Of a stretch of DNA of 32,000 bases, positions 48-21,976 are shown piece after piece (the stretch's first letter is position 1; every line of letters starts with the position of its first letter). Origin of the DNA: Methanocaldococcus jannaschii DSM 2661 (GTDB lineage Archaea; AGJL01; Methanococci; Methanococcales; Methanocaldococcaceae); assembly GCF_000091665.1 (NCBI RefSeq), contig NC_000909.1:1056629-1088628 (forward strand), written 5' to 3'. The translations under genes were made by a program, and so were the position numbers. Under the pieces are notes generated by a model. It saw only the letters and a program-made list of their open reading frames with translations, did not search any database and was not told the origin of the DNA.

Positions 48-1673
48 TTAAAATTCACTAACAATCTTCCTCTTCAACATATCTAAAAACTCATTAATTC
101 TCTTCTTTGAAAATCCATATTTCTTAGCAACCTTATAAATCATCTTCTCCCCACCACTTCCATACTGTGCGGCTTTCTTTGGTCTATAGGCAATATAATC
201 TGGCAAATACTGGGAAGCAACATCCCTCAAAATCTTCTTTCTAACAGACCTTACGCACTTTATATTTAAATTGGTATTTTTGAGCCCATTTATGGGCTCA
301 CTTTTCAATGAAATATTAGACTCTGCGTAAGGTCTGTTACTAAGTTCAGACATCTTATATTCAATAGGAATTGATAAAGCAATTTCAACAACCTCCTCAT
401 CTAAGAAAGGAACTCTCAACTCAACACCATTAGCCATTGTACAGTGGTCATCTCTCTCTAAATTTACCTTATATAAATTATAAACATCCTTCAATAGCTC
501 TTTTTTCAGCTCCTCCTCCCCTCTCTCCCTATAAATTCTCTCATGCCTTGCATAGCCTCCAAATAACTCATCAGCTCCTTGCCCAGATAGAACAACCTTT
601 AATCCATCCTCATTTGCCATCTCTGAAGCTACATAGATAGGGATTCCAACTCCAATCTTCATTAAATCAACTTCATCTATTGCCTTAGCTACCTTAAACA
701 CATACTCCTCATACTCCTCTTCTGAAATAATCTTCTTCCTTAGCTTTAAATTTAAATCTTTAGCCAATCTTTCAGCATAGATTAAATCTTCACTATTTTC
801 AGTTCCAACGGCATACAATATAACTTCACAGTATAGAGATGCTAATTTAGCAATCAATGAGCTATCAACTCCTCCAGAGCATATAATTCCAACTTTGTCC
901 AAACCCCTGACCCTCTTTAAAACAGAGTTTTTCAATGCTCTATCTAAATACTCCTTAGCCTCCTCATAACTCCTCTCTTTCATGTAATTTAACTCCAACT
1001 TTTTAAAGCCTTCAATAATTTCAAACCTATTATCATCTAAATAATAAATCAACTGTGAATTTGGCTTCAATGTTTTGATTTTGCTATTTAGCTCATCTAA
1101 ATCTCTCTCACAGCCATCGATATTTATAAGTAGATGCCACAACGCCTTTCTTTCAGAGGCAAAGGCAAAGTATTTATCCCTATCTACATAAAATAATGGC
1201 TTAACTCCAAACATATCCCTTGCCAACCTCACAACATTCTTAGATTTATCATATATGGCAAAGGCATAGTCTCCATCCAACTCTTCCAACTTCTCCTCTT
1301 CATATAGATGAATTATAACCTCATTATCACTGTCTGTCCTAAATTCATGATTTTGTTTTAGATATTCCCTCAACTCAATATAATTGTAAATCTCTCCATT
1401 ACAAACTAACCATATAGTTTCATCCTCATTTGGAATAGGTTGAACTCCATACCTCCCAACAATTGCCAATCTATTATGAGCCAAGCTTAAGTTTCCAATC
1501 ATCTCCTCCTCTAAATCCTCAACATCCTCAAAATCGTTAAAATATATAACTTCATCATCCAACAACAGCCCAGAGTTATCTCTCCCTCTGTGCTTTAAAA
1601 TCTTCATCATATCTATGGAGTATTTAGCAGATATTTGATTGTCTTTAACAATTATTCCACTTATAGAGCACAT
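48..1673 (-). CDS. Asparagine synthetase (glutamine-hydrolysing)-like amidotransferase, AsnB family, with an in-frame palindromic-element insertion near the C-terminus
   Basis: The ATG at 1673 gives MCSISG, the Cys2 nucleophile typical of Ntn amidotransferases; the track start at 1682 is GTG. It has an SGGVDSS PP-loop and a QGADELFGGY motif. Residues SNRPYAE...KCVRSV are encoded by the palindrome at 242-339. Confidence 0.85.
   Translation of the reverse strand: MCSISGIIVKDNQISAKYSIDMMKILKHRGRDNSGLLLDDEVIYFNDFEDVEDLEEEMIGNLSLAHNRLAIVGRYGVQPIPNEDETIWLVCNGEIYNYIELREYLKQNHEFRTDSDNEVIIHLYEEEKLEELDGDYAFAIYDKSKNVVRLARDMFGVKPLFYVDRDKYFAFASERKALWHLLINIDGCERDLDELNSKIKTLKPNSQLIYYLDDNRFEIIEGFKKLELNYMKERSYEEAKEYLDRALKNSVLKRVRGLDKVGIICSGGVDSSLIAKLASLYCEVILYAVGTENSEDLIYAERLAKDLNLKLRKKIISEEEYEEYVFKVAKAIDEVDLMKIGVGIPIYVASEMANEDGLKVVLSGQGADELFGGYARHERIYRERGEEELKKELLKDVYNLYKVNLERDDHCTMANGVELRVPFLDEEVVEIALSIPIEYKMSELSNRPYAESNISLKSEPINGLKNTNLNIKCVRSVRKKILRDVASQYLPDYIAYRPKKAAQYGSGGEKMIYKVAKKYGFSKKRINEFLDMLKRKIVSEF
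242..339. repeat. MJRE-like palindromic element (copy G) inside the AsnB-like CDS
   Basis: Perfect 16-bp terminal inverted repeats: taacagaccttacgca (242-257) and tgcgtaaggtctgtta (324-339). Perfect central hairpin: tgagccca-ttta-tgggctca (281-300). Its reverse complement aligns with the copy at 19476-19575. Confidence 0.85.
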
Positions 1674-1818
1674 GTCTCTCACATTTTTAAATATACCTTA
1701 TTTTTTAATATTAGCTAACACAACTTAACATTTTATGCTAAATATTTGCAAAATTTTAATTTAAATATCTTAATAAAGATTAAATCAATTTATTATAAAT
1801 AACCTTAGAGGTTTTAAA

Positions 1819-5809: not shown

Positions 5810-8800
5810 ATGGATAAAATCTTAGAGATTTTAAAGGATTTTGGCATTGTAGAGCTAAGGCCACCACAGAAAAAGGCATTGGAAAGAGGATTATTGGATA
5901 AGAATAAAAATTTTTTAATATCTATTCCAACAGCATCTGGAAAAACACTAATTGGAGAGATGGCTTTAATAAATCACTTATTGGATGGGAATAAAAATCC
6001 TACAAACAAAAAGGGTATCTTCATAGTGCCTTTAAAGGCATTGGCATCAGAGAAGTATGAGGAGTTTAAAAGCAAATATGAGCGGTATGGGTTGAGAATA
6101 GCCTTATCAATAGGGGATTATGATGAAGATGAGGATTTAAGCAAATATCATTTAATTATAACGACAGCTGAGAAACTTGACTCTCTATGGAGACATAAAA
6201 TTGACTGGATTAATGATGTTTCTGTTGTTGTGGTTGATGAAATTCATCTAATTAATGATGAAACAAGAGGAGGGACGTTAGAGATTTTATTGACTAAATT
6301 AAAAGAGTTCAATGTACAAATTATTGGTTTATCTGCAACTATTGGAAATCCAGATGAGTTGGCTGAGTGGCTTAATGCTGAGCTTATAGTTGATGATTGG
6401 AGACCTGTTGAGTTGAAAAAAGGCATTTACAAAAATGAAGCCATAGAGTTTATAAATGGAGAAATTAGAGAGATAAAGGCAGTTGATAATAACGATATTT
6501 ACAACTTAGTTGTTGATTGTGTAAAGGAAGGAGGATGCTGTTTAGTATTCTGCAACACCAAAAGAAATGCCGTTAATGAGGCAAAGAAATTAAATTTAAA
6601 GAAATTTTTAACTGAAGAGGAAAAAATAAGATTAAAAGAAATAGCTGAAGAGATTTTATCTATCTTAGAGCCACCAACTGAGATGTGTAAAACCTTAGCT
6701 GAATGCATCTTAAACGGCTCTGCCTTTCATCATGCTGGTTTAACTTATCAGCATAGAAAGATTGTTGAAGATGCGTTTAGAAAGAGGTTAATTAAGGTTA
6801 TCTGTTGCACTCCTACACTCTGCCTAAATGCAAACACTGAAATACTGCAAGAGAGCGGATTTAGGAAAATTACTGAATTAAATAAAGACGAAAAAGTCTT
6901 TGCATTATGTGGAAAGGAGATAAAACCAGTAGATGGTTGGAAAGTCCATAAAACTCCACAGCATGAATACAACATCGTTGTAAAAACAGTAAATGGTTTA
7001 GAAATCACTACAACTCCAAATCATATATTTTTAGTTAAAGAAAATGGTTCTTTAAAAGAAAAAGAGGCAAAGGATTTAAAAGTTGGAGATTATGTAGCGA
7101 CAGTTGATAGAATAAGAGTTAAGGAGAAAGATATTGATTTATCTAATGGAGACCTTTATTTCATTGGATATTTCATAGGAGATGGTTATACCGGAGTTAT
7201 AGAAAAAAATACTCTTAAAGCCACTCCAGACCTTGCATTTAATCCAAAATATCCCCCAAATTTTGATGATTCTGAACTTCACAAAAAATACTTTTTGAAA
7301 TGTAGAATATCAAAAGGTGTTGCTCATTATATATACTCGAAAAAACTAAGAAAAATCTTTAATAAATTAAATATGCTCACAAAAGATAACAAAAACATTG
7401 ATGCATTTTGTAATCTTCCATTGGATAAGTTAGCATATCTTATTGCAGGATTGTTTGATAGTGATGGATATATATACTTAAATAGAAAAAACATTGAATT
7501 CTATTCAATATCTGAAAAATTGGTTGAACAATTACAGTTTGTATTGTTAAGATTTGGGATTCATAGCAGTATTAGAAAAAAGAAAACTAAAACTATGGTA
7601 TCTCCAACAAATGGCAAAGAATACAAATGTAAAGACATTTATGTATTAACAATTAGAGATTTTATGAGTATAAAAAGATTTTATGAGAACATCCCACTAA
7701 GACATGAAGAGAAGAGAAGAAAATTAGAAGAAATCATAAAAAATAAAGAAATTGGACAAATTCCTTCGGAATTTGTAGCTCTCCGCTTCACTCCGATTGC
7801 CAAAATATGGTGTGATTGTGGATTTAGTGTTGATTTGACCATGTTTAAACCAAGAACTAAAAGGCAGAGAGAGTTAAATAAAAAACGTGTAAAATTACTT
7901 TTTGAACTATTGGATGGAAAAAAATTAATTACAAACTATAAAGAATATTATTCAAAGAGAAAAAATCCTTATTTTGACTTTATTGTAAGAGAAAAAATTA
8001 ATGGAAACAATTATTACTCTTTAAATGAAAAAGGCAGAGTTTTAATGAGTCTCCTAAATAAACACATAAAAGATAAAGAAAACTTAGAAGAGATGTATAA
8101 CTTTTTAGTAAATCTCGAAAAATGTCCAATTTGTGGTAAGCCAATTCATAAAGAGATGAGATATAGCTGGAAAAAAGAATGCTATGATGGAGACATTTAT
8201 TGGGATAGAATTAAAGAAATTAAAAAGATAAAAGTAAATGACAAGTATGCCTATGACATAGAACTGCCAGACGATGGAAGCAACAGCCATTATATTGTGG
8301 CAAATGGATTTATAGTGCATAACTCTGCTGGGCTGAACTTACCGTGTAGAAGGGCAATAGTTAAAGACTTAACAAGATTTACAAATAAAGGGATGAGATA
8401 CATCCCAATAATGGAAATCCAACAATGTATAGGAAGAGCTGGAAGACCAGGATTAGACCCATATGGAGAAGGGATAATCGTAGCAAAGAATGATAGAGAT
8501 TATTTAAGGGCTTATCAGGCATTGACGCAAAAACCAGAGCCAATATATTCAAAGCTCTCAAATCAAGCAGTTTTAAGAACTCAACTTTTAGGACTTATTG
8601 CTACTGGAGAGATTAGAGATGAGTATGATTTAGAATGGTTTATAAGAAATACCTTCTATGCTCATCAATATGGAAATTTGAGGGAAGTTGCTAAAAATAT
8701 TAATGAAGTCATTAGATTTTTGGAAGAGAATGAGTTTATTATTGATTTTATGCCAACAGAATTAGGAAAGAGAGTTTCTGAACTCTACATAGACCCATTG

Positions 8801-9397
8801 TCAGCTAAATTCATCATAGATGGATTGGAAGAGATGGAGAATGAAGAAGAGATTTATTATCTCTACCTAATTTCAAAAACCTTGGAGATGATGCCAAATT
8901 TAAGAGTTTATAACTCTGAAGAGTTAAATTTAATTGATGAAATGGACTCTCTTGGAATAAAAAGCTTTGAGATTGAGGATTTAGAGGCATTTAAAACAGC
9001 TAAGATGCTGTATGATTGGATTAATGAAGTTCCAGAAGATGAAATTTTAAAGAGATATAAGATTGAACCAGGGATTTTGAGATATAAGGTTGAAAATGCT
9101 GTTTGGATAATGCATGCATTAAAAGAGATTGCTAAATTAATTGGTAAAAGCTCAGACATTCCAGAGAAGTTGGAGATAAGGTTAGAATATGGAGCTAAGG
9201 AAGATATTATTGAGTTGTTGAGCATAAAGTATATTGGAAGGGTTAGAGCAAGAAAGCTGTATAATGCTGGAATTAGAAGTATTGAGGATATTATAAACAA
9301 CCCTTCAAAAGTGGCTTCAATTATTGGAGAAAAAATAGCTAAAAAGATTTTGGATGAGTTGGGAGTTAAATTTGGACAGCAAAAACTAAGTTTTTAA
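5810..9397 (+). CDS. hel308: Hel308/Ski2-type DNA helicase precursor containing one intein
   Basis: Walker A PTASGKT, the DEIH box, SAT, and the helicase motif TPTL|SAGLNLP split by the intein. Winged-helix, ratchet and HhH domains are C-terminal. A ggagg SD is present. Confidence 0.93.
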   Translation: MDKILEILKDFGIVELRPPQKKALERGLLDKNKNFLISIPTASGKTLIGEMALINHLLDGNKNPTNKKGIFIVPLKALASEKYEEFKSKYERYGLRIALSIGDYDEDEDLSKYHLIITTAEKLDSLWRHKIDWINDVSVVVVDEIHLINDETRGGTLEILLTKLKEFNVQIIGLSATIGNPDELAEWLNAELIVDDWRPVELKKGIYKNEAIEFINGEIREIKAVDNNDIYNLVVDCVKEGGCCLVFCNTKRNAVNEAKKLNLKKFLTEEEKIRLKEIAEEILSILEPPTEMCKTLAECILNGSAFHHAGLTYQHRKIVEDAFRKRLIKVICCTPTLCLNANTEILQESGFRKITELNKDEKVFALCGKEIKPVDGWKVHKTPQHEYNIVVKTVNGLEITTTPNHIFLVKENGSLKEKEAKDLKVGDYVATVDRIRVKEKDIDLSNGDLYFIGYFIGDGYTGVIEKNTLKATPDLAFNPKYPPNFDDSELHKKYFLKCRISKGVAHYIYSKKLRKIFNKLNMLTKDNKNIDAFCNLPLDKLAYLIAGLFDSDGYIYLNRKNIEFYSISEKLVEQLQFVLLRFGIHSSIRKKKTKTMVSPTNGKEYKCKDIYVLTIRDFMSIKRFYENIPLRHEEKRRKLEEIIKNKEIGQIPSEFVALRFTPIAKIWCDCGFSVDLTMFKPRTKRQRELNKKRVKLLFELLDGKKLITNYKEYYSKRKNPYFDFIVREKINGNNYYSLNEKGRVLMSLLNKHIKDKENLEEMYNFLVNLEKCPICGKPIHKEMRYSWKKECYDGDIYWDRIKEIKKIKVNDKYAYDIELPDDGSNSHYIVANGFIVHNSAGLNLPCRRAIVKDLTRFTNKGMRYIPIMEIQQCIGRAGRPGLDPYGEGIIVAKNDRDYLRAYQALTQKPEPIYSKLSNQAVLRTQLLGLIATGEIRDEYDLEWFIRNTFYAHQYGNLREVAKNINEVIRFLEENEFIIDFMPTELGKRVSELYIDPLSAKFIIDGLEEMENEEEIYYLYLISKTLEMMPNLRVYNSEELNLIDEMDSLGIKSFEIEDLEAFKTAKMLYDWINEVPEDEILKRYKIEPGILRYKVENAVWIMHALKEIAKLIGKSSDIPEKLEIRLEYGAKEDIIELLSIKYIGRVRARKLYNAGIRSIEDIINNPSKVASIIGEKIAKKILDELGVKFGQQKLSF
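6821..8323 (+). mobile_element. Intein (501 aa) with a LAGLIDADG homing-endonuclease domain
   Basis: It starts at Cys (CLNANTEIL) straight after TPTL and ends ...FIVHN followed by Ser+1. LAGLIDADG blocks: LYFIGYFIGDGY and LAYLIAGLFDSDGYI. It is 1503 nt and in frame. Confidence 0.9.
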
Positions 9398-16413: not shown

Positions 16414-16770
16414 TTATTCTTCCTTTTCAGCACTTTCACCGTTATTTTCATTTTCTTCTAATATAATAATGTTTTTCTTACAACTGTTTAAATGTTTAAA
16501 AGCGTTTTCTTCAAGTTTTTTGGCTAAGTTTTTGGGGACATTATCCATATTATTGGCTAAGTAACTGGCAACACAAGCAGATAACAGTAATATCGCTGCT
16601 TTTTGTTCGCTTTTAAGTCGATGAATGTGATGGGGCCTAATGTCTAACATCTCATAAATTTTAAATAATTTTTTACATTCATTGTCAGTATTTTCTAAAT
16701 TATCATCCATAATTTCTTTTACAACATAAACAAAAAATTGATGAAGTTTCATTAACTGCTCTTTGTGCAT
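16414..16770 (-). CDS. Small helical hypothetical protein (possibly UPF0058 family)
   Basis: 118 aa, ATG start, sits just upstream of guaAB with 18 nt between them, acidic tail. The family assignment is from memory only. Confidence 0.5.
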   Translation of the reverse strand: MHKEQLMKLHQFFVYVVKEIMDDNLENTDNECKKLFKIYEMLDIRPHHIHRLKSEQKAAILLLSACVASYLANNMDNVPKNLAKKLEENAFKHLNSCKKNIIILEENENNGESAEKEE

Positions 16771-16831
16771 GTTATCACTTTAAATATTAAGCAAAGAATA
16801 AGATTAATATTAAAATTGGCTAAGAAATATA

Positions 16832-16941
16832 TATAGTTTTTTGCAAAACATTTTAGGATAAAAAGGTATTTATGAACGCCTTCCTTTTGGAAGGCGTTTA
16901 AACTTTCCTTAATAAATTTTATTACTTTGCAAAAAACTATA
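16832..16941. repeat. MJRE-like palindromic element (copy C), in a divergent intergenic region
   Basis: Inverted repeats tatagttttttgcaaaa (16832-16848) and ctttgcaaaaaactata (16925-16941) pair at 16/17. Perfect 10-bp central hairpin aacgccttcc-tttt-ggaaggcgtt (16875-16898). Confidence 0.85.
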
Positions 16942-16958
16942 AAAACTTTGGTGGTATC

Positions 16959-18224
16959 ATGAGAGAAATCATTAATAAACTTAATCCCATTATAATAGAC
17001 AAAGCCGATAAAAAGTTTGGAGTTTCAAGAATATTAAAAAAATATGATGGAAAACCAGTTTATATAAAAGATGTAAATGGATTTGAAGTTGTTGGAAATC
17101 TTTGCAGTAGGGAAACCCTTTCAAAGATTTTTAATGTTAAAAAGGAGGATTTTATATTCTTTATGCTTGATGCAATGGAAAAGGAAAAAGAAGGAAAATT
17201 AAAGATAAACAATAAATTGAAAGAGAAATATATTGTTGAAATCCCAGAGAATATTAAAAACTGGCCAATTCCAATATACTACGAGAAGGATGCGGGAGCT
17301 TATATAACAAGTGGGGTTGTTGTTGTCTATGATAAAGATTACGGCTATAACTTATCAATTCATAGAATTTTGGTTAAAGATGATTATTTAGTTATAAGAA
17401 TGGTTGAACAAAGGCATTTACACTTTTTATATAATAAAGCTCTAAAGGAAAAGGGATATTTGGATGTTGCTATAGTTATAGGAGTTCATCCAGCTGTTTT
17501 GTTGGCTGGCTCTACCTCTGCTGATATAACATTTGATGAGCTAAAATTTGCAGCTGCTTTGTTGGGAGGAGAGATAGGGGTTTTTGAGTTGGATAATGGC
17601 TTGTTAGTTCCAGAGGCAGAGTTTATCATTGAGGGTAAGATATTGCCAGAGGTTGATGATGAGGGGCCTTTTGTAGATATAACTGGAACTTATGATATTG
17701 TTAGAAAGCAGCCAATAATTAAGATTGAGAAACTTTATAGGAAGGAAAAACCTATATTCCACGCTTTATTACCGGGAGGGATTGAACATAAAACATTGAT
17801 GGGAATGCCTCAAGAGCCAAGAATTTTGAAGGGAGTTAGAAATACCGTTCCGACAGTAAAAAATATTGTTTTAACTGAGGGAGGTTGTTGCTGGCTTCAT
17901 GCTGTTGTTCAGATAGAGAAGAGGACAGAAGGAGATGGGAAAAATGCTATATTGGCAGCATTTGCTTCCCATCCAAGTTTGAAGCATGTGATTGTAGTTG
18001 ATGATGACATAAATATATTTGATATAAATGATGTTGAGTATGCAATAGCCACAAGGGTTCAAGGAGATAAAGATATAGTTATTATTTCTGGAGCCAAAGG
18101 TTCTTCTTTAGATCCTTCGAGTGATTTAAAAAATAAACTAACAGCAAAAGTGGGGGTAGATGCAACTATGAGTTTGATTAAAGGTAGAGAGCATTTTGAG
18201 AGAGCCAAGATTCCTGATAAATGA
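16959..18224 (+). CDS. UbiD-family (prenyl-FMN dependent) decarboxylase
   Basis: 421 aa with UbiD-like blocks throughout: YITSGVVV, NLSIHRI, VDITGTYD and GGCCWLHAVVQI. A ggtgg SD is present. Confidence 0.85.
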   Translation: MREIINKLNPIIIDKADKKFGVSRILKKYDGKPVYIKDVNGFEVVGNLCSRETLSKIFNVKKEDFIFFMLDAMEKEKEGKLKINNKLKEKYIVEIPENIKNWPIPIYYEKDAGAYITSGVVVVYDKDYGYNLSIHRILVKDDYLVIRMVEQRHLHFLYNKALKEKGYLDVAIVIGVHPAVLLAGSTSADITFDELKFAAALLGGEIGVFELDNGLLVPEAEFIIEGKILPEVDDEGPFVDITGTYDIVRKQPIIKIEKLYRKEKPIFHALLPGGIEHKTLMGMPQEPRILKGVRNTVPTVKNIVLTEGGCCWLHAVVQIEKRTEGDGKNAILAAFASHPSLKHVIVVDDDINIFDINDVEYAIATRVQGDKDIVIISGAKGSSLDPSSDLKNKLTAKVGVDATMSLIKGREHFERAKIPDK

Positions 18225-19475: not shown

Positions 19476-19575
19476 TATATAGAACTTTCGCAGGAATAAA
19501 ATGTTTTATTGAATATTGATGCCTAAAGGCATCCAAATACCTTTTTAAAAATATAAGTTGCGAAAGTTCTATATA
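19476..19575. repeat. MJRE-like palindromic element (copy D), upstream of elp3
   Basis: Perfect 17-bp inverted repeats: tatatagaactttcgca (19476-19492) and tgcgaaagttctatata (19559-19575). Central hairpin gatgcc-taaa-ggcatc (19518-19533). Confidence 0.88.
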
Positions 19576-19633
19576 TAAATCATTTTTATAAATATATTCA
19601 TATATGTAAGTTTAAAGTTTATTGGTGATTATC

Positions 19634-21247
19634 ATGGATGAAAAGGCAAAATTAATGAGATGCATCATTGAAAGAATCTTAGATGAATACAACAAAGGAA
19701 AAACCTTGGATAAAAAGAGAATTGAACAGATTAAGGCAGAGTGTTTAAGAATACATAGAATTGGTATTGGGCATCCATCAAACTCTGAGATTTTGCAGTA
19801 TGCAACTGAAGAGGAAAAGAAGATATTAATCCCAATATTAAGAAAGAAGCCTGTCAGGACAATCTCTGGTGTTGCTGTTGTAGCAGTGATGACATCTCCA
19901 GAAAAATGCCCTCATGGAAAATGTATCTTCTGCCCCGGAGGAGTTGGAAGTGTATTTGGAGATGTGCCACAAAGCTACACTGGAAGAGAGCCAGCCACTA
20001 TGAGAGGTTTGATGTTCAACTTCGACCCATATTTACAAACAAAGGCAAGGATTGAGCAGTTGGAAAAGGTAGGGCATCCAACAAATAAAATTGAATTAAT
20101 TATAATGGGAGGAACATTTCCAGCAAGAGATATAGAATATCAAGATTGGTTTATTAAGAGATGCTTAGATGCCATGAATGGCGTTGATGCAAGTAGCTTA
20201 GAGGAAGCCCAAAAGATAAATGAAACTGCAGAACATAGATGCGTAGCTCTCTGTATAGAAACAAGGCCAGATTATTGTGGAGAAAAGGAAATAAATCAGA
20301 TGCTAAAGTTGGGAGCTACAAGGGTAGAGTTGGGAGTTCAAACAATATATAATGAGATTTTAGAATTCTGTAAGAGAGGGCATACAGTTGAAGACACTAT
20401 AAAAGCCACCCAACTATTAAAGGATAGTGGTTTAAAGGTTTCTTATCATCTAATGCCTGGAATGCCTGGCTCAGATATGGAGATGGATAAAAAAATGTTT
20501 AAAGAAATCTTTGAAAACCCAGATTTCAAGCCGGATATGGTTAAAATCTATCCATGTTTGGTTATTGAAGGAACTGAACTCTATGAAATGTGGAAGAGAG
20601 GAGAGTATAAACCATACAGAGAGGAAGAGGCAATAGAGATAATTAGCTATGCAAAATCAATAATGCCAAAATGGGTTAGAACTTCAAGGATTCAGAGGGA
20701 CATTCCAGCTACTGTGATAGTTGATGGAGTTAAGAAGAGTAATTTGGGAGAGTTGGTTTATAAATACATGGAAAAGCATGGAATTAAATGTAAGTGTATA
20801 AGATGCAGAGAAGTTGGACATGTCATGTATAAAAAAGGAATAATGCCGGATATTGAGCATATAAAACTATGCAGAGAAGAATATGAGGCAAGTGGAGGAA
20901 CTGAGATATTCCTATCCTATGAAGATGTGAAAAACGATATCTTGATAGCATTTTTAAGATTGAGAGAGCCTTATAAACCATTTAGAAAAGAGATTGACGA
21001 TAACACAATGTTAGTTAGGCAACTCCATGTCTGTGGGCAAGAAAAACCATTAACTAAGGATTTGAAAGAAATAACTTGGCAACATAAAGGTTATGGAAGA
21101 AAACTTTTAGAAGAGGCAGAGAGAATAGCCAAAGAAGAATTTGGAAAGAAAAAGATTTTGGTGACAAGTGGTATTGGAGTTAGAGAATATTATAGAAAGT
21201 TAGGATATGAAAGAGTTGGGGCCTATATGGGTAAATACTTAGAATAG
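19634..21247 (+). CDS. elp3: Elp3-type radical SAM / GNAT tRNA uridine(34) modification enzyme
   Basis: The ATG at 19634 follows ggtga; the track start is TTG. It has the Elp3 Cys motif CPHGKCIFCPGG, a radical-SAM barrel, and a C-terminal GNAT domain (HKGYGRKLLEEAERIA). Confidence 0.92.
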   Translation: MDEKAKLMRCIIERILDEYNKGKTLDKKRIEQIKAECLRIHRIGIGHPSNSEILQYATEEEKKILIPILRKKPVRTISGVAVVAVMTSPEKCPHGKCIFCPGGVGSVFGDVPQSYTGREPATMRGLMFNFDPYLQTKARIEQLEKVGHPTNKIELIIMGGTFPARDIEYQDWFIKRCLDAMNGVDASSLEEAQKINETAEHRCVALCIETRPDYCGEKEINQMLKLGATRVELGVQTIYNEILEFCKRGHTVEDTIKATQLLKDSGLKVSYHLMPGMPGSDMEMDKKMFKEIFENPDFKPDMVKIYPCLVIEGTELYEMWKRGEYKPYREEEAIEIISYAKSIMPKWVRTSRIQRDIPATVIVDGVKKSNLGELVYKYMEKHGIKCKCIRCREVGHVMYKKGIMPDIEHIKLCREEYEASGGTEIFLSYEDVKNDILIAFLRLREPYKPFRKEIDDNTMLVRQLHVCGQEKPLTKDLKEITWQHKGYGRKLLEEAERIAKEEFGKKKILVTSGIGVREYYRKLGYERVGAYMGKYLE

Positions 21248-21338
21248 GACTTTCGCAGTTTATATGTTAAACTTTGGAACTTAGACACCTTTAGGGTGTC
21301 ATTATGCAATAAATAATTATTCCTGCGAAAGTCCTATT
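21243..21338. repeat. MJRE-like palindromic element (copy E), overlapping the elp3 stop codon
   Basis: Perfect 16-bp inverted repeats: aataggactttcgcag (21243-21258) and ctgcgaaagtcctatt (21323-21338). Central hairpin gacacc-tttag-ggtgtc (21284-21300). Its reverse complement aligns with copy D. Confidence 0.88.
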
Positions 21339-21385
21339 AGAATAATCAATCATCAAATCTTGTAATAATGAATAAGGTATTTATA

Positions 21386-21402
21386 AAAAGCCTTTGGCTT
21401 TT
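21386..21402. terminator. Short hairpin flanked by T/A runs between convergent genes
   Basis: aaaagcc-ttt-ggctttt is a 7-bp stem. It reads as hairpin plus T-run on both strands and overlaps the stop codon of the minus-strand membrane-protein gene. Confidence 0.3.
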
Positions 21403-21976
21403 ATATAAAGTTCATTAGAGAACAGATATTTATTTGATGATTGATTATAAATGCCACAATAAAAGGAAGATAGAGATTGTCATCTATTCTTATTTTCTTA
21501 CTTACAAATTCAATAAATGCTGAGATTAAAGCTACGAAAATCCCATAAGTTCCATAAAATGGATATAAAATTAATGAGGCAGAGATAAAAAATGCTAAAA
21601 ATCCCTCAACCGTTTTTCCAAAGTATTTTATTTTTAATTTTCCTCTAATGCCTATTATAGTAGCTAAAGAATCCCCAACAGCAAATACCAAGATGCCAAA
21701 AAATACAGCTTTTATATCATCAATTAAAATTAATGAGATTAACATACCAATAGCAAAGTATATCGCTCCTTTTCCATCCTCTTTTTCTCTTTTACAGAGA
21801 TTTAATAAATCTGATACTATTGGTATGTAATATCTTTTACATAAAAAATATAGGCAGATACCAATAACTATACTAACAATTAATGGAATTATTAATTGTT
21901 TTTTAAATATTAAAACTGAAAATGCTATTAAAACTCCAAAAACTAAATGGATTGTTTGTCTATAAATCTCTCTCAA
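21401..21976 (-). CDS. Integral membrane protein, polyprenol (dolichol) kinase / CTP-transferase-like
   Basis: About 6 predicted TM helices. The motif VGDSLATIIGIRGK...GKTVEGFLAFF resembles the CdsA/dolichol-kinase family. TTG start, with no early in-frame ATG. Confidence 0.5.
   Translation of the reverse strand: MREIYRQTIHLVFGVLIAFSVLIFKKQLIIPLIVSIVIGICLYFLCKRYYIPIVSDLLNLCKREKEDGKGAIYFAIGMLISLILIDDIKAVFFGILVFAVGDSLATIIGIRGKLKIKYFGKTVEGFLAFFISASLILYPFYGTYGIFVALISAFIEFVSKKIRIDDNLYLPFIVAFIINHQINICSLMNFI

Follow-up and report, generated by a model that had tools for sequence, protein, structure and literature searches.

A palindromic repeat of the MJRE type, open in frame and predicted to form a loop, within an asnB-like gene of Methanocaldococcus jannaschii

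How can a near-perfect palindrome come to lie wholly inside a protein-coding gene while the gene remains readable from end to end? The question is raised by a 32,000-nucleotide stretch of the Methanocaldococcus jannaschii DSM 2661 genome (here termed 'the window'), in which a minus-strand open reading frame (48..1682) wholly encloses a palindromic element of 98 bp. The explanation that we favour, and to which we would assign a probability of roughly 0.8, is that a small, non-autonomous palindrome of the 'MJRE' type, which is MITE-like and possesses IS701-like ends, inserted at a TTAG sequence and is now read through by its host gene as a tolerated loop of 33 residues.

The finding itself is already known, in that the element belongs to the MJREs, a class of palindromes with potential to code for peptides (Suyama, Lathe and Bork 2005); the preliminary description of this DNA had taken the class to be probably known, and the citing passages of two later papers, which refer to that study for M. 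jannaschii repeats fused in frame into protein genes and place them beside cases from Rickettsia and Wolbachia (PMC2229807, PMC2996958), agree. MJREs are found in the same genome, are palindromic and about 100 bp in length, and are mostly intergenic, with a few located in genes where the frame stays open; in a comparison drawn from the citing papers and the description of the class, the element studied here displays no demonstrable difference from them. The original survey reportedly sorted 141 elements into three groups and placed three copies, all of MJRE2, within genes; the asnB-like instance is very probably one of those three. A second, bacterial precedent is provided by the Rickettsia palindromic elements (RPEs; Ogata et al. 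2000, Science 290:347), which, in the passages of PMC10969869 and PMC2996958 that describe them, are likewise palindromic repeats situated in frame in housekeeping genes and translated as loop segments that are compatible with the fold of the host protein. In contrast to the M. jannaschii element, to which they bear no sequence relationship, RPEs measure about 150 bp and reside in a bacterial intracellular parasite, where in-gene copies are frequent (dozens), whereas in-gene insertions in M. jannaschii are rare.

The features of the host gene and of the element within it are as follows (window coordinates; features other than the two coding ones have no strand assigned).

48..1673, minus strand: host gene, an asnB-like glutamine amidotransferase (Q58516 / AAB99117.1, 541 aa), with its ATG at 1673 and its stop codon at 48-50.
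242..339: palindromic repeat element of 98 bp, MJRE-type and MITE-like, inside the coding sequence, delimited by the palindrome and by its absence from orthologous empty sites.
242..257: terminal inverted repeat, arm 1, TAACAGACCTTACGCA, with the core CAGACCTTACGCA, which resembles the end of the IS701-family element ISPlag1, CAGGACTTACGCA.
324..339: terminal inverted repeat, arm 2, TGCGTAAGGTCTGTTA, a perfect 16-nt core.
281..300: central GC-rich hairpin, TGAGCCCAT tt ATGGGCTCA, from repeat finding and folding.
243..341, minus strand: 33 inserted codons encoding SNRPYAESNISLKSEPINGLKNTNLNIKCVRSV, residues 445-477, a predicted disordered loop.
241..244: CTAA (TTAG on the mRNA strand), copy 1 of a 4-bp direct repeat that marks both junctions, as seen when filled and empty sites are compared.
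340..343: CTAA (TTAG on the mRNA strand), copy 2 of the same repeat, from the same comparison.

The two arms with which the element begins and ends are part of a longer pair, at 237-257 and 324-344, of 21 nt and 90% complementarity, within which the 16-nt core (242-257 and 324-339) is perfect; at the centre, a perfect 9-nt repeat allows 281-289 to pair with 292-300. The mRNA strand folds with a predicted energy of -40.7 kcal/mol, as compared with -13.1 +/- 2.9 once its dinucleotides are shuffled (z = -9.4; none of 200 shuffles folded as well), and the fold of the element as DNA reaches -26.8 kcal/mol (z = -10.8). Both folds and the repeat finding thus bear out the earlier account of a 98-bp near-perfect palindrome with perfect 16-bp ends and a GC-rich central hairpin (of 8-9 bp). 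That account had also foreseen a strong hairpin in the mRNA, which holds at 37 C but less so for the living cell: at 85 C, the growth temperature of the organism, the predicted energy falls to -8.6 kcal/mol, so that the hairpin is predicted to be much weaker there.

That the palindrome is an insertion is evident from the orthologues of the host gene. In 19 of the 20 that were aligned, a gap of exactly 33 residues separates ...YKMSEL from RKKILR; these include, from the same genus, Methanocaldococcus sp. FS406-22, sp. 28A, M. fervens, M. indicus and M. infernus, and, from beyond it, Methanotorris, Methanococcus, Methanothermococcus and Methanobacterium. Two metagenomic relatives show the gap as well. 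The sole exception in the alignment is a second carrier of the insert, considered below. A gap of about 33 residues was what the preliminary description had expected of orthologues, and it is found even in distant genera; together with the position of the insert in a loop of the modelled protein, it supports the suggestion that a repeat insertion has been tolerated as a peptide insert. In nucleotide sequence, the empty site reads GAACTTAGAAAG in sp. 28A and in one MAG and GAACTTAGGAAA in FS406-22, while the filled site reads GAACTTAG|TAACAG...CTGTTAG|AAAG (the vertical strokes mark the junctions) and is longer by 99 bp. TTAG is present at both junctions, and the boundaries of the insert are therefore ambiguous by four bases, with the 99 inserted bases placeable anywhere from 241-339 to 245-343. 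The junctions can be described either as a 4-bp TTAG repeat or as an imperfect 7-bp repeat (TTAGTAA / TTAGAAA). A simple 5-bp target duplication was considered for this copy and does not fit its junctions; as a speculation, two extra bases at one junction might have restored the frame (92 + 5 = 97, versus the 99 observed).

The protein encoded by the open reading frame was identified by exact-sequence look-up as M. jannaschii DSM 2661 Q58516 / AAB99117.1, annotated asnB, and contains the domains Asn_synthase and GATase_7; the gene is the one that we take to bear the locus tag MJ1116, and a literature search for MJ1116 returned nothing. Read in all six frames, the element is free of stop codons in just one, that in phase with the host gene, and the probability that 33 random codons of the same base composition would lack stops is about 0.07. 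The inserted codons, said earlier to keep the frame open at 243-341, prove to be residues 445-477 of the 541-aa protein, and they predict peptides by which translation could be recognized: MSELSNRPYAESNISLK, SEPINGLK and NTNLNIK, the last two of which are tryptic. An AlphaFold2 model built from 62 homologues has a mean pLDDT of 90.3, and the only segment with a pLDDT below 50 is that of residues 445-474, which is devoid of secondary structure. Superposition of the model on E. coli AsnB (1CT9) gives TM values of 0.77/0.84, and in a sequence alignment to the same structure, residues 441 and 477 of the query pair with AsnB residues 421 and 427, which indicates that the insert takes the place of a loop of about five residues in E. 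coli AsnB. That loop is reportedly disordered in the 1CT9 crystal structure. The insert is thus predicted, as had been proposed for checking by modelling, to form a disordered surface loop on an otherwise intact enzyme. The N-terminal cysteine (Cys2) and the SGGxDS motif are conserved in the orthologue alignment, and the host genes of the two lineages that carry the insert give a dN/dS of 0.07; given these observations, the intact frame and the high-confidence model, the gene looks functional with the insert in place.

Two further copies of the same repeat family lie in the 32-kb window, which brings the copies found there to three (beginning at 242, 19476 and 21243).

19476..19575, no strand assigned: intergenic copy with ends TATAGAACTTTCGCA, from the profile and the end motif.
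21243..21338, no strand assigned: copy with ends ATAGGACTTTCGCAG and TTAGAA on both flanks, abutting the 3' end of the open reading frame 19622..21247.

The in-gene copy has its length and the end motif YAGRNCYTTWCGCA in common with these intergenic copies, and a leave-one-out profile constructed from three other copies recovers it at full length (E = 1.4e-3 in 82 kb). Elsewhere in the window, neither its central hairpin nor, at a tolerance of up to three mismatches, its 16-mer end recurs; family membership accordingly rests on the profile and the end motif. The in-gene copy is therefore best described as a diverged member of the intergenic family, with similarity that is weak outside the ends, and the earlier assertion that it belongs with the intergenic elements of the window stands as to membership and not as to any obvious resemblance. 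Further copies were found in Methanocaldococcus sp. 28A, where one sits after a glycosyltransferase gene, and on two AT-rich metagenome contigs. The repeats that flank individual copies vary, from an exact 6-bp TTAGAA at 21243 to a 4-bp TATA at 19476 and an exact 5-bp duplication (ATCAT) in sp. 28A. The sequence of the central hairpin differs among copies and is self-complementary in each. A scan of viral contigs found nothing, as did a plasmid search with the 21243 copy that was able to show extrachromosomal copies of M. jannaschii.

Several other features of the window deserve mention in their own right. The copy at 21243 abuts an open reading frame of 541 aa (19622..21247), the stop codon of which, TAG (21245-21247), consists of the first three bases of the element end TAGGAC; the right-hand TTAGAA of the same copy is followed by TAA, so that the insertion seems to have swapped one stop codon for another and to have left the protein unchanged. 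Adjoining that copy is a second palindrome (21342-21448) with different perfect ends of 17 bp, ATAATCAATCATCAAAT, separated by 73 nt; it has no other convincing copy in the window and may belong to another MJRE group. A large imperfect palindrome at 16825-16948, with 60-nt arms that are 70% complementary and separated by 4 nt, is situated between the divergent open reading frames 16414..16770 (minus strand) and 16959..18224 (plus strand). Elsewhere, an open reading frame of 1195 aa (5810-9397, plus strand) corresponds to a gene that, on another locus (L148), has precomputed Pfam matches to DEAD/helicase, Intein_splicing and LAGLIDADG_3; judged by those domains, it is an intein-containing helicase of a kind to be expected in an M. 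jannaschii genome.

The ends of the repeats offer a clue to their possible origin. A search pattern was derived from two intergenic copies (ACTTWCGCA, where W = A/T, followed by 50-80 bases and TGCGWAAGTYCTRT) and applied to one genome per species. It matched at least 120 loci, nearly all of those listed being from cyanobacteria, Poribacteria, Undibacterium/Burkholderiales and Chloroflexi. The listed bacterial elements are 75-100 bp in length; their ends are conserved (YAGGACTTACGCA...TGCGTAAGTCCTR) and their interiors unrelated, and the YAGG bases that flank those ends match too, across more than 120 elements, though they were absent from the search pattern. Among the matches listed, exact 5-bp duplications flank 81 of 127 small elements, from which it follows that the bacterial elements are genuine MITEs. 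Between neighbouring small elements lie ordinary host genes, and no full-length IS element was found between end pairs in the bacterial loci. As an observation on its own, this bacterial MITE family is very widespread, in genomes and metagenomes alike (loci L006-L146), and its ends, YAGGACTT(A/T)CGCA, are those of ISPlag1.

ISPlag1 is an element of the IS701 group from Planktothrix with a published terminal inverted repeat, CAGGACTTACGCAAGC... (PMC2464740). On a Planktothrix plasmid, a complete ISPlag1 has CAGGACTTACGCAAGC... at both ends, and its transposase, of 337 aa, matches NCBIfam NF049921 (IS701 family) with E = 3e-122. Against the ISPlag1 end YAGGACTT(A/T)CGCA, both the end of the in-gene copy (CAGACCTTACGCAG) and that of the intergenic copy at 21243 are identical at 11 of 14 positions. 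A target duplication of 4 bp, which is also the length of the TTAG junction repeat in one of the two readings of the in-gene copy, is reported for the IS701 family and is the classical IS701 length (PMC2266710). In light of the ISPlag1-like ends, and of bacterial MITEs of the same size, the M. jannaschii repeats have the appearance of MITEs from an IS701-type lineage; no link between MJRE ends and IS701-type transposons was found in the literature searched. The likeness extends to the terminal repeat (11 of 14 positions), to a size of 75-100 bp and to a variable interior. It does not extend to the sequences of those interiors, which are unrelated, nor to the clean 5-bp duplications of the bacterial elements (81 of 127, among the matches listed), which are missing from the in-gene copy, and the matching transposase was identified in Planktothrix. 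Another published MITE, Nezha of Anabaena/Nostoc (Zhou et al. 2008), was considered as a lead only: its terminal repeats also match those of an IS element, and its recent mobility is read from filled and empty sites (PMC3184786), but it is tied to ISNpu3 and measures 130-170 bp. As an identity for the bacterial elements it was dropped, the size being different.

Taken in sequence, the favoured explanation would proceed as follows. The element would be a small, non-autonomous palindromic repeat that behaves like a MITE, with terminal inverted repeats and without a transposase gene of its own, and the resemblance of its ends to those of IS701-family transposons suggests that its arrival was transposase-mediated. 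It would have inserted at a TTAG, in a part of the asnB-like gene that encodes a loop, with a net gain (99 bp) that is a multiple of three; with its sole stop-free frame in phase, the gene would be read through and the insert presumably translated in vivo. The enzyme would thereby have gained a disordered surface loop of 33 residues where E. coli AsnB has about five. The enzyme is under purifying selection, which argues that the insert is tolerated rather than disabling, and the loop may well be neutral.

The distribution of the insert adds a complication. One other lineage contains it, a metagenomic Methanocaldococcus (L001), represented by a protein cluster (P0001) of five members that all share the same variant. 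At all four neighbouring genes, M. jannaschii is nearer to FS406-22 than to L001 (for example, 0.90 versus 0.77 nucleotide identity), and within asnB itself, 101 informative sites unite M. jannaschii with FS406-22, as compared with 60 that unite it with L001; the closest sampled relative at asnB, a MAG with 90.8% nucleotide identity, is without the insert. On these sequences, the distribution of the insert does not track relatedness, and a single ancestral insertion would not explain its patchiness. Identity to M. jannaschii along asnB, compared across window positions 48-1673 for L001, L002, L003, L004, L005 and L151, is mosaic: in columns 600-750 it is 0.95 for L151 and 0.78 for L001, and in columns 1350-1500 it is 0.94 for L001, a pattern that suggests recombination among Methanocaldococcus lineages. 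Around the insert, a test for a recombination tract identified two possibly shared-derived sites downstream, too weak to decide. The patchiness could have arisen by precise loss between the TTAG repeats, an event favoured by a palindrome, or equally by recombinational transfer of the filled allele. A further M. jannaschii-like asnB sequence with the insert, from a Logan assembly (P0127), runs out of frame shortly after RKKILR; this frameshift probably stems from a mistake in sequencing or assembly and not from true variation.

Patchiness of this kind, with the insert present in the distant L001 and missing from closer lineages, is also what might be cited for regarding the segment as an ancestral loop of the enzyme that other lineages have deleted. 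Such a loop is, however, missing from all orthologues outside the two Methanocaldococcus lineages, including those of other genera and E. coli AsnB, and a near-perfect palindrome from a dispersed repeat family is unlike any ordinary protein loop; with the orthologue gap, the comparison of filled and empty DNA and the match to the family profile, that history is effectively refuted, and we regard it as exceedingly improbable. Nor is it at all likely that the insertion inactivated the gene and left a decaying pseudogene: a disordered insert of 33 residues directly before the invariant RKxILR block might be expected to do damage, yet the 541 codons form an unbroken frame, the two carriers show a dN/dS of 0.07, every catalytic motif is conserved and the model is of high confidence outside the insert. 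Some archaeal mRNAs are spliced at bulge-helix-bulge motifs, and the 99 nt could conceivably be removed at the RNA level, as an intron or a processed hairpin, to yield a mature protein like that of the orthologues; the hairpin is very stable, and its base coincides with the boundaries of the insert. When a bulge-helix-bulge motif was sought at those boundaries in the predicted fold, none was found, the structure there being a perfect 16-bp stem, and an Rfam search of the whole window matched no family. Moreover, an insert that is a multiple of three, and open in the used frame only, is expected only if it is translated; both properties are kept in both carriers (in spite of three amino-acid changes between them), and removal at the RNA level is therefore very unlikely.

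A more substantial challenge to the reading of the element as a tolerated insertion comes from the conservation of the palindrome itself, which might have been co-opted: selection would then retain the hairpin for a function in DNA or mRNA (in transcript stability, translation pausing or as a recombination site), with the peptide loop as a by-product. The copies of M. jannaschii and L001 differ at 6 of 98 positions, and both stems are nonetheless perfect in each, an outcome reached with P = 0.019 when six random substitutions are simulated; one pair, at positions 13/86, has changed in a compensatory manner (C:G to T:A; P = 0.07 for at least one such pair). Synonymous divergence in the insert, at 0.14, is about threefold below that of the host gene as a whole (0.47; P = 0.0017); in the 120 codons next to the insert it is 0.33 (P = 0.054 for the comparison). 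Across seven copies of the family, 7 of 15 end pairs covary, and pairs are almost never broken. These numbers are very small, with six substitutions and a single compensatory event, and the low divergence fits constraint at the nucleotide level, correction of one arm by the other or a common origin of the insert that is more recent. Recent recombinational exchange of the insert-bearing allele would be expected to lower divergence just as well, arm-to-arm correction within a palindrome would generate the same pattern in the absence of any function, and covariation between copies can reflect different parent elements. The closest relatives manage without the insert, and the predicted stability of the RNA at 85 C is only -8.6 kcal/mol. 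A co-opted hairpin is thus improbable on balance, and a tolerated insertion of an MJRE-type palindrome is the explanation that we retain.

A broader proposition can be built around that explanation, in which the insert would be a presence/absence allele still moving among Methanocaldococcus (through precise excision at TTAG or through recombination), its palindrome actively maintained (by selection or by arm-to-arm correction), and the element itself part of an archaeal-bacterial lineage of IS701-type MITEs that is able to add loops to enzymes. We put this forward tentatively, as something that we would sooner doubt than believe.

For M. jannaschii, the locus offers a clean and checkable case of a mobile-type repeat that has turned into part of a protein, and, as far as the model can be trusted, it would indicate that an enzyme from a hyperthermophile can absorb a disordered loop of 33 residues while its fold, and the selection upon it, are retained. 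The phenomenon was published in 2005 for M. jannaschii and in 2000 for Rickettsia, and little is added to it here. The side results (the IS701-type ends, the patchy distribution and the preserved stems) constitute modest leads rather than established findings; if pursued, they could nevertheless shed light on the source of the archaeal repeats, and on whether natural vent populations gain and lose such inserts repeatedly.
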